Below, in pieces: positions 10,734 through 25,625 of a stretch of DNA of 64,000 nucleotides; positions within the stretch are counted from its first letter, which is position 1; the number at the start of each line of letters is the position of its first letter. The stretch is from IMG/VR virus record IMGVR_UViG_3300045988_161286; one strand, given 5' to 3'. The position numbers and the translations under genes are program-made. Under the pieces are notes generated by a model. It did not search any database and had not been told where the DNA came from. It was given only the letters and a program-made list of their open reading frames with translations. The stretch comes from a virus.

Positions 10734-10994
10734 ATGCTAAAGGTTGGAGATAAGGTTAAAATACTTCCAACAATACTGTCAAGCTATCCTAATTTTCCGT
10801 ATGTAGGGGTAGTAGGCAGAGTTTGTGCTATTTACAACGATAATGATTCGATAGCTGTTGAGTTTTCGCATCCTAATGAGTATTTTCATAACTGTGACGG
10901 GAAGTCTGGGCAGTATTCTGGCTGGTATTGTTGTAGGAAAGAGTTGGAATTTATACCTGATGATAATTTGCCAGATATTTGGGAATATATCTAA
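10734..10994 (+). CDS. hypothetical protein, paralog of 17883-18164
   Basis: ATG after AGGAGG. VGDKVKILPTILS.YP.FPYVG.VGRVC ... SGWYC ... LEFIPD.LPDIWEYI is shared with the second copy at high nucleotide identity. Confidence 0.8.
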   Translation: MLKVGDKVKILPTILSSYPNFPYVGVVGRVCAIYNDNDSIAVEFSHPNEYFHNCDGKSGQYSGWYCCRKELEFIPDDNLPDIWEYI

Positions 10995-11597: not shown

Positions 11598-11906
11598 TGT
11601 AACATTTGCTTGCTTTATTAAATAAAGCCGCCTTACTTAAAGTAAGGTGTTAGAAAAGGTTAGAGAGAAGAACGGGATACAGGCTGAAGGCGAGTCGGTG
11701 GTGGACAGCTCTGACACAGGATACCGTCAGGAAACTAAAGCTCTTACACAGAAAAGGACTGTTTCCGAGACCAAACCCAAACGGAAAAAGCACATAAAAA
11801 GATTACTTTAGTACTCGATAAGAGCATAGAACCAAAACTGTTAGCCAGCAAAGAGCTAAATTTACAGATTCTTCGCAAGTTCCATCTTTATTTAAGAAAT
11901 GTTACA
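11598..11906 (+). ncRNA. structured RNA element A (paralog of B and C)
   Basis: 10-bp closing helix TGTAACATTT (11598-11607) / AAATGTTACA (11897-11906). Conserved hairpin CCTTACT-TAA-AGTAAGG (11631-11647) followed by TAGAAAAGGTTAGAG. GC-rich ~290-nt interior with no ORF. Confidence 0.55.
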
Positions 11907-12023
11907 GCACCCCTTTAGATAGGGGTGAGCGGTTACAAAACTACTACCTCCTCGTGGTGTAACTGGGTAATGCTAAAGTAGAAATAAATTAAAGTGCCAT
12001 ACGAGGCAGAAAGGAGTCACAAA

Positions 12024-12410
12024 ATGACTGTAAAAACATTAAACAATGTGATGGTTATTGAAGCCAACTTTTCAATGGAGGAACTTTTTAAAGTTTACAA
12101 ACACAAGCCAGATGTATTGTCATTAAAGGATGATGATGGCAATATGCTTTTCGCTGTAAAGCCAAGCGAACACAGAGAGAGTTTTAGCGATTGCGGAATT
12201 TCTTTTGTAAGTAATTCTTACACAGCGTCAAAGGCATCAATTACAATTCCTCTCCCATCAGAAGCTGCCAACAACACAAAGGTGTGGATTGCAGAAAACT
12301 TTGGTTCAATTCTGACAAATCTTGAACAGATTGAAAGAAATGTATCGGAAGCATGTATTGATATTGATGCAAACATTGCAAAAATTGTCGGCTCAATTGT
12401 AACAGCGTAA
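12024..12410 (+). CDS. hypothetical 128-aa protein, first gene of the Ubl unit
   Basis: ATG 12024 after AAAGGAG. The track start at 11994 is an upstream GTG. It has two Cys (SFSDCGISF, SEACIDID). No motif recognised. Confidence 0.75.
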   Translation: MTVKTLNNVMVIEANFSMEELFKVYKHKPDVLSLKDDDGNMLFAVKPSEHRESFSDCGISFVSNSYTASKASITIPLPSEAANNTKVWIAENFGSILTNLEQIERNVSEACIDIDANIAKIVGSIVTA

Positions 12411-12427
12411 ACAAGGAGGAAATAATA

Positions 12428-12661
12428 ATGAAAAGCATTAAAGTTCAGAACAATCTTAAGTCAAAAACAATCATTGGCAACCCAGACGAAATGACAGTTC
12501 AGCAGGCTTTCAATGAAGCCCAGCTCGAAATGGGTAATGGCATTCTCAATCTTAACGGCGTTGTGGTATCTGCACAGGATGTCAACAGAACGCTGTCTGA
12601 CATTGTTGGCGCAAGAGATACATACATTCTTGCATCAGTTGTCAAAGCCGATTGTGCATAA
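12428..12661 (+). CDS. ThiS/MoaD-like beta-grasp (ubiquitin-like) protein candidate, 77 aa
   Basis: ATG after AAGGAGG. The pattern ILNLNGVVVSAQDVNRTLSDIVGARDTYILASVVKADCA mirrors the ThiS/MoaD C-terminal half (NG.vv ... L.dgD.i.i..v.GG), but it ends KADCA. The call is based on pattern only. Confidence 0.45.
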   Translation: MKSIKVQNNLKSKTIIGNPDEMTVQQAFNEAQLEMGNGILNLNGVVVSAQDVNRTLSDIVGARDTYILASVVKADCA

Positions 12662-12674
12662 TTTGATTTGAAAC

Positions 12675-12704
12675 AAGGGAGAGTACACTCTCCCTTTGGC
12701 ATTT
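12675..12704 (+). terminator. terminator-like hairpin after the Ubl gene
   Basis: AAGGGAGAGT-ac-ACTCTCCCTT followed by TGGCATTT. The same sequence occurs at 25046-25075. Its T-rich tail is also strand a1 of element B. Confidence 0.5.
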
Positions 12705-12994
12705 GCATTGTCGCAAGACTGCTTTACTTAAAGTAAAGTATCAGAAAGGTTAGAAGCAGAGGAGTCACCCGGCACGAGATGCTGCTGGAGGCGACGTGAA
12801 TGAAATGCACGGTGATGAAAACGAGTAGAGGCGACTATCTCTCAAACTCAAGGGTTACAACTGAAAGGAGCTTACGAATCCATGATTTGCCGCTGAAATC
12901 GCCACATCAAAGCTATAATTACATCAAGAATCCCAATGACCAAGCTTCCTGCAGGCGTCTTCTCACTGCTACAATTGTATTTAGAAATGCCAAA
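12695..12994 (+). ncRNA. structured RNA element B, leader of the JAB/E1/RT operon
   Basis: Closing helix TTTGGCATTT (12695-12704) / AAATGCCAAA (12985-12994). GTC-GCAA-GAC tetraloop hairpin. CTTTACT-TAA-AGTAAAG (12722-12738). Inner stem AGCAGAGGAG (12755-12764) / CTTCTcaCTGCT (12959-12970) encloses a GC-rich ~190-nt domain. Confidence 0.55.
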
Positions 12995-13012
12995 ATCTAA
13001 GGAGGAATAGAA

Positions 13013-14296
13013 ATGGATTTAATTACAAATTTACACACACGGAGTTGTTTTGATAGCCGTCTTACATTTGGAGATGATTGCCCTAAGATAATCGAAACAT
13101 TTGTCAAATGTGTTTATGAACCTTATTACACTAAGAACGGTGATTTGCCATCTGTATTTTTTGGTTGTGTTTCCGGCGCACGGGCACCACAGAGAGCCGC
13201 AACAGACAAAGCTGTTTATATATGGTATAACGACATAGAACCCACTATAGAGGGAATTAATAAGAAATTTAACTGTAGTGTGGAATCGTATGAGAATTAT
13301 GATAAGTATTGTGAATCAACCTATAATAAATCAAAAGGATGGGTTGGTGACAATCAGTATATTTTTTGGGTAGATCCGTTTAATAAACAACTTATAGAAT
13401 ACACGATAGCTGTTTTCCTTATTCCACTGTTTGACTTTGTTTGCACAGCAAAAGAGATCAAAAACAAATTCAAACCAATTGTTGATGAAATAAGCCAAGG
13501 TTTAGATGATAAATTGTTCGACTTAGCCGAGAAAATTTCAGAAGAAAAAGGATTATCGAAGGTTGTGTTAAATGCTCAAATTACCGATCTTGCACAATAT
13601 AAAAAGAAACGCAATCTTGATCGACTACACGCAAGGATTAAGGATTATGAATCGGATTATAGACATCATGCAGCATATGTAGCAGAGGTTTACGAAAAGT
13701 TGTTGGATTGCAAAAAACAATTATCACTATACAATGACAATGATAATGATAATGCTGCATTGATAGATATGCTTACAAACAACAGTGCGATTTCTAATGT
13801 GAAAATTAATGGAGGAGACCTTGAGTTTGTAGTATGCAACCCGATTACTCAGTATGATGAAGATGCTTTTGCCGAAATATTAAAATCAGAAAATTCCACT
13901 ATTAATAATATGCCAAGCGTAAGTAAGGATGTTTTATGTTGGATGGTTGATGGCAGAATTGATCTATTAACCGAATGTGGAATCGGTATAAGTCTTGATA
14001 ACAATTCTTTTGATGCTTACGAGACATATATATACGGTTATATGCCTCATCCTCATTTGGCTTTATTTGATTGCTTTGGAGGTTTTAGAATAGATATCGC
14101 AACTGCATTAGCAGAAGGCAATATCTGCTATGCAATACAGCTTATTCTTACTGCGTCACAAAATTTGAATTTTATGGATTCTACGGTGATGCATAGGTTG
14201 GGAGCTCTGCTCAATGAGGCAGACTACTCGTGTATTATGGATAAGGAGTCTGGAGAAGTTATGACAGTAAACGAATGGAACGAAAGGAGAAAATAA
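13013..14296 (+). CDS. hypothetical 427-aa protein (central coiled coil; possible E2-like C-terminus)
   Basis: ATG 7 nt after AAGGAGG. Heptad-like central region. The C-terminal YMPHPHLALFDCFGG (HPx ... C) is only faintly UBC-like. Confidence 0.8.
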   Translation: MDLITNLHTRSCFDSRLTFGDDCPKIIETFVKCVYEPYYTKNGDLPSVFFGCVSGARAPQRAATDKAVYIWYNDIEPTIEGINKKFNCSVESYENYDKYCESTYNKSKGWVGDNQYIFWVDPFNKQLIEYTIAVFLIPLFDFVCTAKEIKNKFKPIVDEISQGLDDKLFDLAEKISEEKGLSKVVLNAQITDLAQYKKKRNLDRLHARIKDYESDYRHHAAYVAEVYEKLLDCKKQLSLYNDNDNDNAALIDMLTNNSAISNVKINGGDLEFVVCNPITQYDEDAFAEILKSENSTINNMPSVSKDVLCWMVDGRIDLLTECGIGISLDNNSFDAYETYIYGYMPHPHLALFDCFGGFRIDIATALAEGNICYAIQLILTASQNLNFMDSTVMHRLGALLNEADYSCIMDKESGEVMTVNEWNERRK

Positions 14297-14297
14297 A

Positions 14298-15113
14298 ATG
14301 CAACTTTTAAAGATACCGACAGATATAGAAACACCTACAATATCTTTCACTCCATTAGCTTTTGCCAAAATGATGATGCTTGTTGAGGTAAATGACAAAG
14401 AGGTGGGGTGGCATGGCACAGTTGAAAGGCAAAACAATAACTTTGTTATTACTGATATCTTTGTATATCCTCAAGTAGTTACTCGAACAACCGTTGAGCC
14501 TTCTCAGGCAGAGTATAACGAATGGCAGACTGAGTTGCCAGATGATATACATAACAGTCTTAGATTTCACGGGCATTCTCATGTAAATATGGGAACATCG
14601 GCATCATCTGTTGATACAAAATTTCAGCAAGACATCGTGAAAATGATTGATAATACTGATTTTTATATCTTTATGATTATAAATAAAAAAGGTGATTTTA
14701 ATATATATCTTTATGATGGTGTGCTTAATTTAGCATATAAGTCTACAAGTAAGGACACTCAGCCTGAGATAACATTAAACACAAATAATATTCAGTCGTT
14801 TGGAAAAATACTTTGTGTTTCACCTGAAGTTTACGACACATTGATGTCTTTCAAGGAAGAATCAAAAGATATGGTTACAGAACCAAAACGAGTATCGTAT
14901 TCGTATTATGAATATCCTTACAACTACGGTAATACGGGTGTAAAAAGCCAGAGTTCTATTGAACTATCTATTGGAGAAATTCAAGATATATTCGGTGTTC
15001 CTTATTTGGACGCCAAAGATGTACATGATGAGTTGAGTAATCTTGTACATAAAGGAGCGATAACTAACGATAGGGATTCATTGATTGAACAGGCAAGTCT
15101 GTATATATATTAA
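14298..15113 (+). CDS. JAB/MPN+ (JAMM) metallopeptidase with an extra C-terminal domain
   Basis: Complete JAMM signature: KEVGWHG (Glu) then H93-S-H95-x7-S103-x2-D106 (HGHSHVNMGTSASSVD, nt 14574-14615). Starts 1 nt after the previous stop. Confidence 0.8.
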   Translation: MQLLKIPTDIETPTISFTPLAFAKMMMLVEVNDKEVGWHGTVERQNNNFVITDIFVYPQVVTRTTVEPSQAEYNEWQTELPDDIHNSLRFHGHSHVNMGTSASSVDTKFQQDIVKMIDNTDFYIFMIINKKGDFNIYLYDGVLNLAYKSTSKDTQPEITLNTNNIQSFGKILCVSPEVYDTLMSFKEESKDMVTEPKRVSYSYYEYPYNYGNTGVKSQSSIELSIGEIQDIFGVPYLDAKDVHDELSNLVHKGAITNDRDSLIEQASLYIY

Positions 15114-15127
15114 GGAGGTCTTACGGA

Positions 15128-15796
15128 ATGGATTTAAGTAAATTAGGAGATATTAACCCATATCAGAAGGAGCTGTCAACCACTATACATATAGTCGGAT
15201 GCGGAAGCGTAGGTAGTACGCAGGCAGAGCTTCTTGCAAGATATGGCTTTTGCAAGTTTAAATTATATGACTTTGATTTCGTTGAAAGTAAAAATCTTTG
15301 CAACCAGATGTTTTTTAATTCTGATTTAAACCACAACAAAGCAGAGTCATTAAAAAACATCTTGCTTTCCGTTAATCCGGATATCGAAGTTCAGGTGTTT
15401 GATAAAGGCTATATTAATCAGCGACTTAACGGAATCGTAATTCTTTGTGCTGACAATATTGATTTGTGTAGAAATATTTGCAAGCAGAATAGACTTAATC
15501 CATACATAAAGGTAATGTTGAATTACCGTACTGCAAGATACGATGCGCAGCACTATGCAGTAGAGTGGAGAGATAAACCAAGTGTGGATAATTTGATTAA
15601 AACAATGAATTTCACACATGAAGAAGCAAAAGCCGAAACTCCAGTGTCAGCATGTGGAGTAGAGATTGGTGAATCTATTGTTGTAAGAGATATTGTACTT
15701 AAAGGTACAACGAATCTGTTTAAATGGATTACCGAAAGAAAATTAAGCCCTTTGATTATATCTTCTCCATATAAATTTGACACGGTAGTAATGTAA
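15128..15796 (+). CDS. ThiF/MoeB/E1-like adenylyltransferase (minimal, 222 aa)
   Basis: IHIVGCGSVGSTQAELLARYG ... KLYDFDFVESKNLCNQ, i.e. a GxGxxG Rossmann motif plus D.D.ve.sNL..Q (nt 15197-15214 for GxGxxG). Confidence 0.75.
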   Translation: MDLSKLGDINPYQKELSTTIHIVGCGSVGSTQAELLARYGFCKFKLYDFDFVESKNLCNQMFFNSDLNHNKAESLKNILLSVNPDIEVQVFDKGYINQRLNGIVILCADNIDLCRNICKQNRLNPYIKVMLNYRTARYDAQHYAVEWRDKPSVDNLIKTMNFTHEEAKAETPVSACGVEIGESIVVRDIVLKGTTNLFKWITERKLSPLIISSPYKFDTVVM

Positions 15797-15809
15797 AGGA
15801 GGGACATGT

Positions 15810-16955
15810 ATGTGCTACTATGTGTGTTTGCCAAAAACCGAATCGAAGCCTAACATTTGGAGTTGGCTTGAAGGTGATATACATTCTCCACAGTGGTTAT
15901 GGGGTACTAAATCTGCGGCAGCCACAGTAACTCGCAGAGTCGATTTTATACCTGCGAGCGCAAAAGACAAATACAATGTCAATTTTATTGTTGGCATATT
16001 GGATGCCTTTAATAAAAAATGGAGTTATCTTGGACAAGAAATTGAAAAACATTATTCTCATTTCTATATTCCAAAAAAGAAATTAGACGAATATGGCAGA
16101 GTTAAATGGAGAGAAATTTGTGCTCCAGATGATGAATTATCTGAAGCATTGAAGGACTTAAAAGGGATTTTCGAGACTGCGGGTGTTTCATTACATCACA
16201 CCAACGCATACGCTTATGTTCGACATAGAACAGCCTCGGATGCAGTTTCCAAGCATCAGTATAACCATAGTCGCTGGTGGATAACAACTGATTTTCAAAA
16301 CTTTTTTGGTAATACTACCAAAGAATTTCTTATGTCTATGATGGCACAAATATTTCCATTTAGTGCAGTTATTGAACGAGATTTTGGAAAAGAGTGTTTA
16401 AGCAGGGCATTGGATTTATGTTTTCTTAATGGGGGCTTGCCACAAGGAACTCCAATCAGTCCAATGCTTACTAATATTATGATGATACCGTTTGACTACA
16501 TAATGACAAAAAAATGCCGTGAAAAAGACTATATATATACTCGATATAGCGATGATATACAAGTTTCACACCGTAGAAAGTTTAATCCAGATGAAGTTCT
16601 TGGATTCATCCATGAGACACTGACTCAAATTCACGCTCCGTTTACAATTGAGAAAGAAAAAACAAAGTTTAAAAGTGGAAATCAGTTCGTATTAGGTGTT
16701 ATGTATAATCAAAATTGCGACATTACAGTCGGTCATAAGAATAAAAAAGAGTTCAAAGCTACATTATTTAATTATATGTGTGATAGGCTAAGCGGTAAAG
16801 TTTGGGAGTTGCCACAACTCCAACAAATGATGGGTAAATATGCATATTACTCAATGATTGAAAAAGAGTATTTTGAAAATGTAATGAAGGAATATTCTCG
16901 TAAATTTAAGCAGGATGTTATGAAATGTATCAAAGCAGACTTGCGTAGATGCTAA
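15810..16955 (+). CDS. reverse transcriptase, retron/UG-like
   Basis: RT motifs: FYIPKKK ... REICAP, AYAYVRHRTASDAVSKH, WWITTDFQNFF, GLPQGTPISPMLTN, YSDD (16545-16556), and FVLGVMYN in place of the retron VTG. No maturase or endonuclease domains. Confidence 0.8.
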   Translation: MCYYVCLPKTESKPNIWSWLEGDIHSPQWLWGTKSAAATVTRRVDFIPASAKDKYNVNFIVGILDAFNKKWSYLGQEIEKHYSHFYIPKKKLDEYGRVKWREICAPDDELSEALKDLKGIFETAGVSLHHTNAYAYVRHRTASDAVSKHQYNHSRWWITTDFQNFFGNTTKEFLMSMMAQIFPFSAVIERDFGKECLSRALDLCFLNGGLPQGTPISPMLTNIMMIPFDYIMTKKCREKDYIYTRYSDDIQVSHRRKFNPDEVLGFIHETLTQIHAPFTIEKEKTKFKSGNQFVLGVMYNQNCDITVGHKNKKEFKATLFNYMCDRLSGKVWELPQLQQMMGKYAYYSMIEKEYFENVMKEYSRKFKQDVMKCIKADLRRC

Positions 16956-17036: not shown

Positions 17037-17111
17037 TGAGCAGTCGCCAAGCGGTTAAGGCACTGGACTTTGACTCCAGTATCGTGGGTTCAATTCCCAC
17101 CTGCTCAGCCA
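17037..17111 (+). tRNA. tRNA-Gln (anticodon UUG)
   Basis: Hand-folded cloverleaf: acceptor TGAGCAG/CTGCTCA with U1-A72 and G73, anticodon loop CTTTGAC, T-loop TTCAATT, encoded CCA. Confidence 0.8.
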
Positions 17112-17113
17112 AA

Positions 17114-17268
17114 CGGTATTGTGTAGCTTTATAACCTTGCGGTTCAAAATAAAAATCTACCGTCATGGTAGAAAGACTTTATACTGATCAGTTACTCAGT
17201 TTGGCATTGAATGGAACGGCGGTGTCCCTTGACTGTTGTTCCGTCAGCCTTCAATCTACACAATACCG
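17114..17268 (+). other. inter-tRNA spacer closed by a 13-bp perfect inverted repeat
   Basis: CGGTATTGTGTAG (17114-17126) / CTACACAATACCG (17256-17268). Internal hairpins include CTACC-gtcat-GGTAG. Confidence 0.5.
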
Positions 17269-17273
17269 GATAT

Positions 17274-17349
17274 GACACAGTAGTCCAATGGCAGAGACAG
17301 CAGACTTAAAATCTGTAAAGTGAGAGTTCAAATCTCTTCTGTGTCACCA
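17274..17349 (+). tRNA. class-I tRNA with anticodon UAA (Leu codon UUA) and no long variable arm
   Basis: Acceptor GACACAG/CTGTGTC, A73, CCA. Anticodon stem GCAGA/TCTGT, loop CTTAAAA. 5-nt variable loop. T-arm GAGAG-TTCAAAT-CTCTT. Confidence 0.7.
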
Positions 17350-17352
17350 TAT

Positions 17353-17429
17353 GGACTGTTAGCTCAACTGGTTAGAGCGGCAAACTCATAATTTGCGGGT
17401 ACAGGGTTCGACTCCCTGACAGTCCACCA
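17353..17429 (+). tRNA. tRNA with anticodon CAU (elongator Met or Ile2)
   Basis: Acceptor GGACTGT/ACAGTCC, D-arm GCTC ... GAGC, anticodon loop CTCATAA, T-loop TTCGACT, A73, CCA. Confidence 0.8.
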
Positions 17430-17566: not shown

Positions 17567-17911
17567 ATGAAGAAGTTAAAAGCTGAACTACATAGAATGC
17601 GATTCTGGATAAGTGCAATATCAATATTTATTACAGTTCCATTATTCGTAATTGCTCGATTAGGAGCAGTGAATGAACGAAAATCAGAAATGCTCGGTGG
17701 CGAATTATTGATTTTGTTCATTCCATTCATTGCAAATATGATATACATAAACATTAAAGATACAATAATTCATCATCGCAGAATGACGATGATTCTCAAA
17801 AGAAAGAAAGTTCCAAAACCCACAATTGTGGTTAAAAATATTAAGAGTATAAAAGAGAATAATACGAAGGATGTGATTGATAATGTCCGTAGAGAAAAAC
17901 CAACTTTTTAA
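17567..17911 (+). CDS. membrane protein (114 aa)
   Basis: ATG after GAAAGGAAAGAG. Two hydrophobic helices (ISAISIFITVPLFVIA, LLILFIPFIANMIYI). Confidence 0.7.
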   Translation: MKKLKAELHRMRFWISAISIFITVPLFVIARLGAVNERKSEMLGGELLILFIPFIANMIYINIKDTIIHHRRMTMILKRKKVPKPTIVVKNIKSIKENNTKDVIDNVRREKPTF

Positions 17912-18164
17912 AGTTGGAGATAAGGTTAAAATACTTCCAACAATACTATCAGACTATCCTGATTTTCCGTATGTAGGAATAGTAGGCAGAGTGTGTGACA
18001 TGGCAGACGATAGTGATCCGATAGCTGTTGAGTTTTCACATCCTCACAGTTACTTGCACGACTGTGGGGGAATAGTTAAGCAACATTCTGGCTGGTATTG
18101 CTTTAGGAGCTATTTGGAATTTATACCTGATAATTTGCCAGATATTTGGGAGTATATTAAATAA
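17883..18164 (+). CDS. hypothetical protein, paralog of 10734-10994
   Basis: In-frame ATG 17883. The sequence is near-identical to the first copy over the first ~90 nt. Confidence 0.8.
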   Translation: MSVEKNQLFKVGDKVKILPTILSDYPDFPYVGIVGRVCDMADDSDPIAVEFSHPHSYLHDCGGIVKQHSGWYCFRSYLEFIPDNLPDIWEYIK

Positions 18165-22588: not shown

Positions 22589-23629
22589 ATGGCAAATTTT
22601 GAAAATATTACAATTGAAAAGGGTATGTATCAGACAAAGGGCGGAATTTCGGACGCACTTGAAAAGCTTGATCCGTCAGAAAATTACAGAGGTACTGCAC
22701 TTGAAGGACTTGACGCATTTTCCCGTCAGCTCAAACGCTTTGATATTAAGGTGAAGGGCAGAAACAGCGACTGCGTTGAAAAGTTTTTTCAGAGTTCAAA
22801 CTCTGCGGCACTTTTCCCCGAATATGTGAGCAGAGCCGTTATGCAGGGCATAGAGAGAGCGGATATTCTCCCAAATCTTGTGGCAACCGTGACAGCCATT
22901 GAGGGTATGGATTACCGCAGTATTGCATCTGTTCCGAGTGAGGATGACAAGAATCTTAAACTCGTCGGAGAGGGTACAAAGATTCCGCAGACTGAGGTTA
23001 AGACAAGAGAAAATCTTGTTAAGCTCCACAAGCGTGGCAGAATGCTTGTTGCATCATATGAGGCTCTTCGCTTTCAGCGTCTTGACCTCTTTGCCGTAAC
23101 ACTCAATCAGATTGGCGCATATATTGCAAAAGCACAGCTTAAAGATGCGATTGATGTGCTTGTGAACGGCGACGACAATGAAAATCCTGCCGACACACTT
23201 GATGTTGCAACAGGCGGCAAAATTACACATGAAGACCTTTTAAAACTCTGGACAGAGCTTGCCCCGTATGAACTCAACACAATTCTTGCGTCAACCCCCG
23301 AAATGCAGAAGATTCTTTCGCTCTCTCAACTTCAGGATTCAAACGCAGGTCTTGATTTTCAGGTTCAGGATTCAAACGCAGGTTTTGATTTTCAGGCTAC
23401 GGGCAGAATATTTACACCTCTCGGCGCAAGCCTTTTTCACACTCCCGAGCTTGAGGGTGGTAAGATTATCGGTCTTGACAAAAACTGTGCGCTTGAAATG
23501 GTTCAGGTAGGCGGTGTTGTTACAGATTACGACAAGCTTATTGACCGTCAGTTTGAAAGAGCCGCAGTTACCTGTACCGCCGGTTTTTCAAAAATCTTTA
23601 CAGAGGCGTCAAAGGTAATGAATTGTTAA
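22589..23629 (+). CDS. HK97-fold major capsid protein-like
   Basis: ATG after AAAGGAGG. Resembles the Phage_capsid family pattern (AIDVLVNGDDNENP ... LDVATGGKITHEDLL ...). No portal, protease or scaffold gene lies nearby. Confidence 0.6.
   Translation: MANFENITIEKGMYQTKGGISDALEKLDPSENYRGTALEGLDAFSRQLKRFDIKVKGRNSDCVEKFFQSSNSAALFPEYVSRAVMQGIERADILPNLVATVTAIEGMDYRSIASVPSEDDKNLKLVGEGTKIPQTEVKTRENLVKLHKRGRMLVASYEALRFQRLDLFAVTLNQIGAYIAKAQLKDAIDVLVNGDDNENPADTLDVATGGKITHEDLLKLWTELAPYELNTILASTPEMQKILSLSQLQDSNAGLDFQVQDSNAGFDFQATGRIFTPLGASLFHTPELEGGKIIGLDKNCALEMVQVGGVVTDYDKLIDRQFERAAVTCTAGFSKIFTEASKVMNC
23333..23398 (+). repeat. 33-nt in-frame tandem duplication inside the capsid-like gene
   Basis: CAGGATTCAAACGCAGGTCTTGATTTTCAGGTT x2 with 2 mismatches. 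Encodes QDSNAGLDFQV / QDSNAGFDFQA. Confidence 0.9.
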
Positions 23630-25024: not shown

Positions 25025-25064
25025 ATACATATAAGAATTTGAAACAAGGGAGAGTACACTCTCC

Positions 25065-25188
25065 CTTTGGCATTTGCATTGTCGAAAGACTGCTTTACTT
25101 AAAGTAAAGTATTAGAAAGGTTAAAAATTATGACTGGAAATATGATTATTTTGAAGAGGCAAAATAATCATATTTAGAAATGCCAAAG
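25065..25188 (+). ncRNA. structured RNA element C (minimal paralog of A/B)
   Basis: Closing helix CTTTGGCATTT (25065-25075) / AAATGCCAAAG (25178-25188). GTC-GAAA-GAC hairpin. CTTTACT-TAA-AGTAAAG (25093-25109). 15-bp perfect hairpin AAATATGATTATTTT (25138-25152) / AAAATAATCATATTT (25161-25175). Confidence 0.55.
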
Positions 25189-25211: not shown

Positions 25212-25625
25212 ATGTTTGCTTTAACTAAAATTGATAGTATACCAAACAATTATCAAAAATATCATATACATAATAATTTACTAATATCTAATAGAATACG
25301 AAGTCATCTGGTTCAGAGATTTCCTGATTGTCATTGGGAAGTCACAAACAATGATATTTATATTAATGTGAGTCTTAAATCTTCACCTTGGGAGAAAAAT
25401 AGTAAAATTGTTCATGCGATTGCTGATTATGCGTATTATTATGCAGATAGCTATAATTACGATCACACTGATATAAATTCTGATTATTGTAATATGAATT
25501 TTTTCGGCGTATACAAGAACAATATTATTGCGAAAGATTATACACAATTAGGAGCAACAAGCAAAACTCAACAGATGGAGCTTGAATTTATGCGTCAGTA
25601 TAATGAAGCATTTACAAATGAATAA
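25212..25625 (+). CDS. hypothetical protein (137 aa)
   Basis: Track ORF. AAGGAGG lies 13 nt upstream. Confidence 0.75.
   Translation: MFALTKIDSIPNNYQKYHIHNNLLISNRIRSHLVQRFPDCHWEVTNNDIYINVSLKSSPWEKNSKIVHAIADYAYYYADSYNYDHTDINSDYCNMNFFGVYKNNIIAKDYTQLGATSKTQQMELEFMRQYNEAFTNE

Follow-up and report, generated by a model that had tools for sequence, protein, structure and literature searches.

A conserved gut-phage cassette joins a retron-like reverse transcriptase to a putative Bil-like set of ubiquitin-like conjugation genes

The phage DNA IMGVR_UViG_3300045988_161286 (64,000 nucleotides; hereafter, the window, meaning this entire stretch) carries at positions 11,598-16,955 a cassette in which genes for a ubiquitin-like protein (Ubl), a JAB metallopeptidase, an E1-type adenylating enzyme and a retron-like reverse transcriptase (RT) stand together with structured non-coding RNAs (ncRNAs). 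In line with a preliminary description of this DNA, Ubl, JAB, E1 and the RT are one phage-borne unit; it is conserved and recurs in homologous loci. Comparative analysis established the composition of the cassette, its absolute linkage, the folds or motifs of Ubl, E1, JAB and RT, and the architecture and hypervariability of the ncRNAs. We give a probability of roughly 45% to the reading that the cassette is a self-contained, horizontally mobile, seven-part module in which a retron-like retroelement and a Bil-like Ubl conjugation pathway are functionally coupled. This gut phage is one of its carriers; further phages and one or more integrative elements that are not phages also have it. All six open reading frames (ORFs) named in the preliminary description are present, as are the gaps of 1, 14 and 13 nt that separate C, JAB, E1 and RT:

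12024-12410, + strand: protein A, 128 aa from an ATG preceded by a ribosome-binding site (138 aa if the GTG at 11994 is used)
12428-12661, + strand: Ubl, 77 aa, C-terminus KADCA
13013-14296, + strand: protein C, 427 aa, with an N-terminal domain, a long coiled coil and a C-terminal domain
14298-15113, + strand: JAB/MPN+ metallopeptidase, 271 aa, C-terminal half of low complexity
15128-15796, + strand: minimal E1/ThiF-type adenylating enzyme, 222 aa
15810-16955, + strand: retron-like RT, 381 aa

No homologous locus departs from the gene order A-Ubl-C-JAB-E1-RT unless it is truncated; this holds for about 130 contigs from about 32 RT clades, with a non-phage element among them, and shows that the adjacency of RT, E1 and JAB recurs and is not fortuitous. 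Members were missing only where the end of a contig cuts the locus. This order is kept in the clade to which the window belongs (in IMG/VR, 26 close contigs with lengths of 57-114 kb), in the loci L050 and L051, in the L052 clade and in 80 loci from an Ubl-profile scan of IMG/VR. Even RT homologues of 37-42% identity (L050, L051 and the L052 clade) again have JAB and E1 ahead of them, with A, Ubl and C seen on inspection. Among the surveyed loci, none was seen with one half only, i.e., the Ubl set or the RT. The cassette is carried mainly by human-gut phages, and it was also found as a standalone unit between serine recombinases in an Oscillospiraceae metagenome-assembled genome and in contigs attributed to Ruminococcus. 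The scan of genome contigs returned one locus, and its tblastn confirmation used the divergent window Ubl as the query, so that the spread among isolate genomes is under-sampled. In agreement with the earlier remark that no described system was known to link the two, a full-text search found no publication linking an RT or retron with Ubl, E1 or JAB, only reviews that name the systems separately; the words ubiquitin, ThiF and JAB are absent from the retron classification paper (Mestre et al. 2020, PMC7736814) and from a 2021 RT review.

The RT matched PF00078 (2.7e-15) and scored best on retron models: NCBIfam retron St85 (2e-45, 155 bits, cut-off 235) and, among PADLOC models, for which no cut-off is available, RT_II-A (5.5e-41), followed by I-A, I-B and III-A (range 1e-41 to 1e-31). 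Its motifs comprise LPQGTPISP..TNIMMIP.D, Y(S/A)DD and LGVM.N, and every catalytic motif is intact and invariant across clades. The YSDD lies at 16545-16556 (residues 246-249), where it had been placed, and the best scores on retron models bear out the earlier description of retron-like motifs with LGVM in place of VTG. Judged by its profile scores, the RT is retron-like, but it is not a retron member by curated thresholds.

The enzymes of the putative conjugation arm are recognizable at family level. The minimal ThiF/MoeB/E1 call held up, with a Pfam ThiF match of 1.1e-19 and, when a six-clade profile was compared with the PDB, a best match to UBA5 (4e-15), followed by MoeB (1e-12), Uba1 (3e-12) and Cap2 (2e-9), as well as TcdA, MccB and ThiF. 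Invariant residues in E1 include the GCGSVGS glycine loop, the Asp of DN..R and Cys176 (PVSAC). The single JAB sequence falls below the Pfam cut-off (E = 0.0034, 17.6 bits versus 22.5); E35, H93, H95, S103 and D106 are invariant in 14 clades, and the profile built from these clades has RPN11, a JAMM deubiquitinase, as its sole match (E = 1e-3). These results confirm the JAB/MPN+ assignment with its complete JAMM signature, H-S-H-x7-S-x2-D, which begins at nt 14574 (residue 93) as claimed.

An AlphaFold2 (AF2) model of the Ubl with a mean predicted local distance difference test (pLDDT) score of 87.9 shows the order beta-beta-alpha-beta-beta-(alpha)-beta followed by a floppy tail, with residues 75-77 disordered. 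The top 50 Foldseek matches in the PDB are all ubiquitin, FAT10, bacterial Ubl or MTH1743 structures (probability 0.97-1.0), including the BilA-type Ubl 8tyx_A. The 77-aa protein is thus a beta-grasp protein, as had been suspected from its sequence pattern. The accompanying idea that KADCA is a tail trimmed by the JAB has to be abandoned, because the terminal Ala is invariant and the consensus ends in LLNVVKADNA across 1,861 Ubl clusters (90% identity). Some family members carry 1-3 residues beyond this Ala, and five loci encode an in-frame Ubl-A fusion (KADNA followed directly by AYIKIAG) with A as the C-terminal partner (L131, 4942-5565; L135, 6444-7082; L136; L151, 6773-7393; L154, 8242-8874 and 8986-9618). 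The extra residues and the fusions imply processing by JAB; the fusions also tie A to the Ubl and require proteolytic maturation after the Ala. At L154, A, two Ubl-A fusions and a free Ubl are arranged in tandem. Protein A is acidic and a conserved cassette member, and no known domain was found in it when 25 members and multi-clade profiles were scanned against Pfam and the PDB (coiled-coil or noise matches only).

The C-termini of the RT (CIKADLRRC, 16929-16955) and the Ubl (VVKADCA, 12641-12661) have [IV]KAD in common, and IKADL at the RT C-terminus is conserved in most clades. By analogy with the CD-NTase tails of the systems for antiphage signalling based on cyclic oligonucleotides (CBASS), the RT tail might be recognised by E1 or JAB; the resemblance might also be a coincidence.

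Protein C, which occupies the E2 position of Bil operons, belongs to a family of 1,479 clusters (50% identity, E<=1e-10). Its C-terminal domain has the invariant residues D282, H348, C354, G356 and N386, and the motif PNPH(I/V)xxxxCxG (N346-P-H348...C354-x-G356) recalls the HPN...C of E2 enzymes, a likeness without statistical support. The AF2 model is of low confidence (pLDDT 50.8), with the secondary-structure order alpha-4beta-loop-3alpha, and its Foldseek matches were meaningless. When 30 members and multi-clade profiles were compared with Pfam and the PDB, no relatives were found beyond coiled-coil or noise matches, and hhalign against three E2 sequences aligned the motif to HPN...C at a probability of only 0.06%. 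The E2/UBC-like call made for the 427-aa protein is therefore unsupported by Pfam, PDB profiles, hhalign and the low-confidence model. Within the window clade, identity in gene C is the same at all sites (0.942) as at 4-fold degenerate sites (0.944), the ratio of non-synonymous to synonymous substitution rates (dN/dS) is about 1 and the transition/transversion ratio (Ts/Tv) is 2.5, versus 6.5-7 in cassette neighbours, which are under purifying selection. The JAB gene comes close to this pattern (0.963 at all sites versus 0.958 at 4-fold sites).

The RNA half of the cassette consists of the following elements:

11598-11906, + strand: ncRNA-1, retron-like (msr/msd-like), with 5' arm a1 11598-11607 (TGTAACATTT), G 11608, stem-loops SL1 11612-11628 and SL2 11631-11647, core ~11670-11890 and 3' arm a2 11897-11906 (AAATGTTACA); the long-range pairing is present in the minimum free energy (MFE) and RNAalifold structures
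11908-11927, + strand: stable hairpin CACCCCT...AGGGGTG between ncRNA-1 and the ribozyme candidate, invariant in the clade
11930-11983, + strand: minimal candidate ribozyme of the hepatitis delta virus (HDV)-like class (theta-type, P4-less), predicted cleavage at ~11930/11931
12677-12694, + strand: terminator-like G+C hairpin GGGAGAG...CTCTCCC, abutting a1 of ncRNA-2
12695-12994, + strand: ncRNA-2, paralogue of ncRNA-1, with a1 12695-12704 (TTTGGCATTT), G 12705, SL1 with a GNRA loop, SL2 12721-12738, core ~12750-12975 and a2 12985-12994 (10-nt inverted repeat, p=0.016)
25066-25187, + strand: miniature third ncRNA copy outside the cassette, with a1, G, SL1 (GNRA), SL2 and a2 kept and a 13-bp hairpin with a hypervariable loop as its middle

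The leaders of both transcription units do share a paralogous 5' element, as previously noted. Every clade and paralogue examined follows a common plan: a 5' arm, a G, a first hairpin of variable sequence, a second hairpin (GCUUUA...UAAAGU), a core and a complementary 3' arm located 240-350 nt from the 5' arm. The arms differ between elements yet remain complementary (TGTAACATTT/AAATGTTACA, TTTGGCATTT/AAATGCCAAA, CTGTAAY/RTTACAG, TGTTTATGGT/ACCATAAACA, GTTTGTGTT/AACACAAAC), and the G directly follows the 5' arm in 23 of 36 elements. Between ncRNA-1 and ncRNA-2, compensatory differences occur in a1/a2 and in SL2 (counted by hand; MAFFT misaligned the paralogous a1 arms). Most clades have 320-530 nt of non-coding DNA ahead of the RT, and a1-G-SL1-SL2 with the CTGTAAY arm lies immediately upstream of the RT in clades other than that of the window. 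The window leaders have no primary-sequence homology to the pre-RT gaps of L050 and L052, and the relationship is visible only through architecture and intermediate clades. As orthologues of the ncRNA that other clades have directly upstream of the RT, the leaders belong to the system; on this comparative evidence they are more than paralogous structured RNAs, namely putative retron-like ncRNAs with hypervariable cores. Given the msr/msd architecture of retrons, we read them as RT template RNAs that were relocated and duplicated in this phage.

Hypervariability was seen first and foremost in the middle of these RNAs. In the L052 clade, the pre-RT region has an invariant 5' part (~115 nt), an invariant 3' part (~55 nt) and a nearly unalignable middle with an identity of 0.55, compared to 0.96 for JAB, E1 and RT and 0.90-0.92 for 4-fold degenerate sites. 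The same pattern was found in the L107, L097, L093, L126 and L148 clades (at least seven clades in all). The window-clade RT has no leader, and the pattern is found instead in the two upstream leaders, where mean pairwise identity is 0.77-0.79 (11700-11900) and 0.71-0.85 (12700-13000), versus 0.97-0.99 in the flanks and 0.88-0.96 at 4-fold sites. The ncRNA cores diverge 3-5 times more than 4-fold sites; among 12 genomes, 61-64% of columns are variable in the cores versus 6-8% in RT and E1, with a Ts/Tv of about 1 (0.97 for ncRNA-1) versus 6.5-7 in RT and E1 (5-7 across the flanking genes). The cores show no adenine bias, indels are frequent and length is conserved. As judged from these alignments, two parts evolve fast in a cassette that is highly conserved elsewhere, namely protein C and the predicted cDNA (complementary DNA) template; this is a signature of conflict interfaces. 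Neither core had a blastn match among INPHARED phages, and they are therefore not recognisable as captured spacers in that collection. A core of the 'never-ending ORF' type (DRT2/Neo-like) was considered and rejected, given that no frame is open across variants and the lengths are not multiples of three.

Seven related contigs conserve the third copy: a compensatory G-C to A-U change leaves its stem paired, and its loop is either variable or inverted. The copy precedes an unrelated 137-aa ORF (25212-25625). Its apical loop reads GAAGAGGC in the window and GCCTCTTC in the contigs L172 and L177. A G+C hairpin identical to that at 12677-12694 (GGGAGAGTACACTCTCCC) is located at 25048-25065 and abuts a1 of the third copy; in both positions it could act as terminator or processing signal, or belong to the ncRNA itself.

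The ribozyme candidate between ncRNA-1 and the A-Ubl genes matches Rfam RF02682 with 26.3 bits in the window and 38.3 bits in its L052 counterpart (gathering threshold 44). Inspection revealed P1 (GGUUAC/GUAACU), P3, L3 (UCCUCGU), P1.1, P2 (CUACU/AGUAG) and the catalytic C in GCUAA, i.e., all elements except P4, and the L052 candidate, too, can be drawn with P1, P1.1, P2, P3 and the catalytic C. The core pattern occurs once in the window and in none of 100 shuffles, and each locus of the window clade and the L052 clade, as well as L141, has it once; the candidate region is 99% conserved. Other candidates, also preceded by a hairpin, lie at 4666-4731 in L052 (between Ubl and C), at ~4909-4960 in L141 (just upstream of A) and at ~2001-2066 in L154, and the hairpins of L052 and L141 are analogous to that at 11908-11927. 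The L154 candidate is ~5.5 kb away from its cassette, and clades differ in where the candidate lies with respect to the cassette genes. Cleavage by the window candidate would set the upstream RNA free, with the hairpin at 11908-11927 as its 3' end. Gut phages have HDV-like ribozymes of the theta type (Kienbeck et al. 2024, PMC10879173); like them, the candidate has a minimal, P4-reduced HDV-like fold in a tRNA-carrying gut Caudoviricetes genome, but it is not at the 3' end of a tRNA, lying instead between the upstream RNA and the A-Ubl mRNA (window and L141) or between Ubl and C (L052 clade).

Compared with known systems, the RNA half is closest to retrons, which consist of an RT, an msr/msd ncRNA and an effector (Mestre et al. 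2020, PMC7736814) and are known on prophages. Apart from the RT scores, the similarities are a same-strand ncRNA that is closed by arms, with a G after the 5' arm and two msr-type 5' stem-loops, and that is located directly upstream of the RT in most clades (6 of 36 arm pairs are individually significant), as well as the modular nature of the associated proteins. In contrast to retrons, the cassette RT lies under all curated cut-offs and has no VTG, its template of ~230 nt is hypervariable between near-identical genomes, the window has up to three ncRNAs per RT that are displaced from it, and the partner is a five-protein Ubl pathway. A second RT-based comparison is provided by the UG27 systems of gut bacteria (bioRxiv 10.64898/2026.09.22.753630), in which several ncRNA units share a single RT (YSDD), each unit having conserved flanks around a variable hairpin at its centre from which short cDNA is made. 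The three ncRNA copies of the window, including the miniature one, fit this theme of one RT with several ncRNAs. The differences are that no domains are detectable in the two accessory proteins of UG27, that ThiF, JAB and Ubl are all absent from it, that the AUCN7UANAG motif of UG27 was not evident by eye in the miniature copy (no systematic test was made), and that the cores of the cassette are ~230 nt long.

The protein half is closest to Bil (BilABCD), reportedly a bacterial ubiquitin-like conjugation defence. Common to both are separate Ubl, E1 and JAB genes in the order Ubl, (E2), JAB, E1, a Cys-bearing protein at the E2 position, a Ubl with an exposed flexible C-terminus, an E1 of the ThiF family, a JAB with a JAMM site and the context of mobile conflict systems. 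Unlike in Bil, the cassette Ubl ends in Ala rather than Gly, E2 homology is undetectable in C, which is a protein of 430-520 aa with a coiled coil, protein A is an additional and sometimes Ubl-fused member, the RT and ncRNA are obligatory, and the carriers are mostly phages. In type II CBASS, Cap2/Cap3 regulate a nucleotidyltransferase-centred system, and the C-terminus of the CD-NTase is conjugated. The cassette resembles it in its E1-type adenylating domain (PADLOC E1-E2 models, 1e-15; PDB Cap2, 2e-9), its JAB and the RT C-terminus (IKADL), whose faint resemblance to the Ubl tail recalls CD-NTase conjugation. The PADLOC E1-E2 matches span only about residues 17-95 of E1 (the nucleotide-binding part), however, and membership in CBASS fails because the cassette has no CD-NTase and no fused E1-E2 Cap2, and has a dedicated Ubl instead. 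The PRTRC cassette was likewise discarded as a family assignment (PRTRC_ThiF, 20 bits versus a cut-off of 144.75; other PRTRC models matched none of the six proteins). In terms of sequence relationships, the module thus appears to work like a retron with a Bil-like effector arm, being a member of neither system by curated criteria.

From these comparisons we infer cDNA synthesis, a conjugation chemistry, an E2 role of C, coupling of the two halves and a biological role, as follows. The RT is predicted to reverse-transcribe an ncRNA held closed by a1/a2, with priming at the G after a1; the 5' stem-loops would be the RT handle (msr-like) and the hypervariable core of ~230 nt the template (msd-like). 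In this phage, the ncRNA would have left its usual site ahead of the RT, taken up a place at the cassette's head and undergone duplication (ncRNA-1, ncRNA-2 and the miniature copy at 25066-25187), and the HDV-like ribozyme candidate may free ncRNA-1 from the A-Ubl mRNA. E1 would adenylate the Ubl at its C-terminal Ala, with a probable thioester at Cys176, and the Ubl would be transferred to Cys354 of protein C as the E2 equivalent, whose fast-evolving N-terminal part may pick the targets. JAB is predicted to mature Ubl precursors (tails and Ubl-A fusions) and to strip conjugates, with protein A as a possible partner or substrate. The RT-cDNA-RNA complex would act as a sensor or regulator, as in retrons, and the Ubl machinery as the effector. 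The module may play a role in inter-virus or virus-host conflict, e.g., superinfection exclusion or counter-defence.

Several observations tell against a coupled retron-like and Bil-like module. On the protein side, the RT is below all curated NCBIfam retron cut-offs (155 versus 235 bits at best) and carries LGV(M) where retrons have VTG; E1 has N at the position of the arginine in the MoeB/ThiF NLxRQ motif; the Ubl ends in Ala, and has neither the C-terminal Gly of Bil nor the Gly-Gly of ThiS/MoaD; and the E2 identity of C failed all available tests (Pfam, PDB profile, hhalign at 0.06%, AF2 at pLDDT 51). On the RNA side, the arms are short (8-13 nt), with no more than 6 of 36 individually significant against shuffled controls, MFE z-scores of the whole leaders are unremarkable (-1.26 for ncRNA-1, -0.31 for ncRNA-2), and RNAalifold found almost no covariation within clades, because the stems are invariant there. 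Lastly, the window ncRNAs are not adjacent to the RT, and ncRNA-2 and the third copy start at a terminator-like hairpin; together with the unrelated gene behind the third copy, this makes a generic 5'-untranslated region (5'-UTR) or regulatory role possible.

Taken further, the leaders could be ordinary phage terminator, promoter or 5'-UTR cassettes with middles that have no connection to the RT and are either spacers free of constraint or hot spots of recombination. The unexceptional folding energies, the terminator-like hairpins at the start of ncRNA-2 and the third copy, and the position of the latter ahead of the gene at 25212 all suit this explanation, but it does not account for the orthologous a1-G-SL1-SL2 elements immediately upstream of the RT in many other clades. 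Relaxed constraint would also not produce cores that evolve 3-5 times faster than synonymous sites with a different mutational spectrum, and both the conserved core length and the miniature copy, in which compensatory change maintains the stem and only the loop varies, tell against this explanation; we regard ordinary leaders as unlikely.

A rather unlikely explanation concerns the chemistry of the protein half, which may represent an adenylation or sulfur-carrier pathway of the ThiS/MoaD/MccB/TcdA type that conjugates no protein, its product being instead a chemically modified nucleic acid (cDNA, ncRNA or tRNAs of the phage) or a small molecule, with the RT product as substrate or scaffold. 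Such a pathway would fit a minimal E1 of 222 aa whose profile also matches MoeB, TcdA (the tRNA ct6A enzyme) and MccB (1e-10 to 1e-12), a Ubl without Gly-Gly, the lack of a recognisable E2 or E3, and the tRNA cluster that follows the cassette. The best E1 match is UBA5, however, and the nearest structures of the Ubl are ubiquitin-type modifiers; the gene order is that of BilA-D, with an invariant Cys/His protein at the E2 position; and a JAB that deconjugates or matures is needed for the Ubl-A fusions and the tails. Furthermore, no rhodanese, sulfurtransferase or synthase partner, as would be typical of a ThiS/MoaD pathway, is present in any surveyed locus.

The two halves could also be functionally independent and merely travel together, given that each resembles a system that works alone elsewhere (Bil and retrons, respectively). 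In many clades the RT has its own ncRNA or promoter region and lies 0.3-1.2 kb away from E1, sometimes with a DUF6273 gene in between. Nonetheless, co-occurrence and order are retained in 100% of non-truncated loci in about 32 RT clades with different genomic backgrounds, and a homologous locus with only one half was never seen. In the window clade, moreover, the ncRNA heads the Ubl genes while the RT sits 13 nt behind E1, and elsewhere an RNase H1 gene is inserted between Ubl and C. These arrangements make simple co-carriage distinctly improbable.

Lastly, it is very improbable that the RT deliberately mutagenises a target, as in diversity-generating retroelements (DGRs), with the hypervariable segments as the diversified products: the RT does lie beside segments that are hypervariable between near-identical genomes and have a non-standard substitution spectrum, and protein C is also fast-evolving, but no template/variable repeat (TR/VR) pair was found in the window and there is no adenine bias (A 0.53-0.57 versus 0.53-0.70 for other bases), so that a TR/VR reading was rejected, while the variable segments are non-coding with frameshifting indels and the RT matches retron models, with no DGR model match and no Avd seen. 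A variant of this idea, self-directed and non-A-specific retro-mutagenesis of the template itself, is possible.

Apart from its invariant gene order, the cassette varies among clades through inserted genes. RNase H1 (HBD 8.5e-21, RNase_H 2.7e-14; N-terminal hybrid-binding domain) is encoded between Ubl and C in several clades (L085, 10330-10971; L140; L142; L148-L150; L152; L153), and a 158-aa protein is encoded between JAB and E1 in the RNase H1 clades and in others. A DUF6273 protein (~265 aa), which is not part of the window cassette, lies between E1 and the ncRNA of the RT in many clades (e.g., L050, 6626-7453; L097, 12473-13279; L107, 12354-13157; L131, 8654-9439). The contigs L005 and L009, two close relatives, have an insertion of ~1.7-2 kb between ncRNA-2 and gene C (equivalents of window positions 13004 and 13003), and in L014, L020 and L022, A and Ubl were undetected upstream of C within the available sequence.

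The window itself is a phage genome, encoding a major head protein (22589-23629), a primase/helicase, a 1087-aa DNA polymerase, NrdD and a methyltransferase, and megablast of the region found no close relative in INPHARED. The setting in a 'replication/early region' given by the preliminary description is not established, the major head gene being only 5.6 kb downstream of the cassette. The tRNA cluster that it reported 3' of the cassette is present (tRNA-Gln, tRNA-Leu and tRNA-Met within 17037-17429), and a 16-nt inverted repeat (17114-17129/17253-17268, 94% complementary) surrounds the spacer between tRNA-Gln and tRNA-Leu. Two paralogous small proteins (10734-10994, 86 aa; 17877-18164, 95 aa), with the common pattern KVGDKVKILPTILS.YP.FPYVG.VGRVC..., bracket the cassette and tRNAs. 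Runs of small paralogous ORFs also occur after the RT in L052 (9874-10749) and before the cassette in L050 (1927-2588).

In microbial immunity, retrons and the ubiquitin-like pathways of bacteria are both young fields, and to our knowledge, reverse transcription and ubiquitin-like conjugation have so far been unconnected. A far-reaching version of the coupled module, which we consider unlikely, is that the Ubl pathway takes its specificity from the hypervariable cDNA, resulting in nucleic-acid-programmed protein tagging, a class of mechanism that we know from no domain of life. Strain-specific single-stranded DNA would guide or scaffold C and A, such that the Ubl is placed on nucleic-acid-bound targets of a rival virus or the host; in a second version, the Ubl would be attached to the RT-cDNA complex itself. 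Several compact parts are of possible biotechnological interest: the RT with its several natural templates, the minimal E1, the Ubl with its terminal Ala and the minimal ribozyme candidate. If the two halves of the cassette work together, they would represent a new retron-type effector logic and a phage-borne use of Ubl tagging, and a small, hypervariable, templated DNA would gain a directly testable role.

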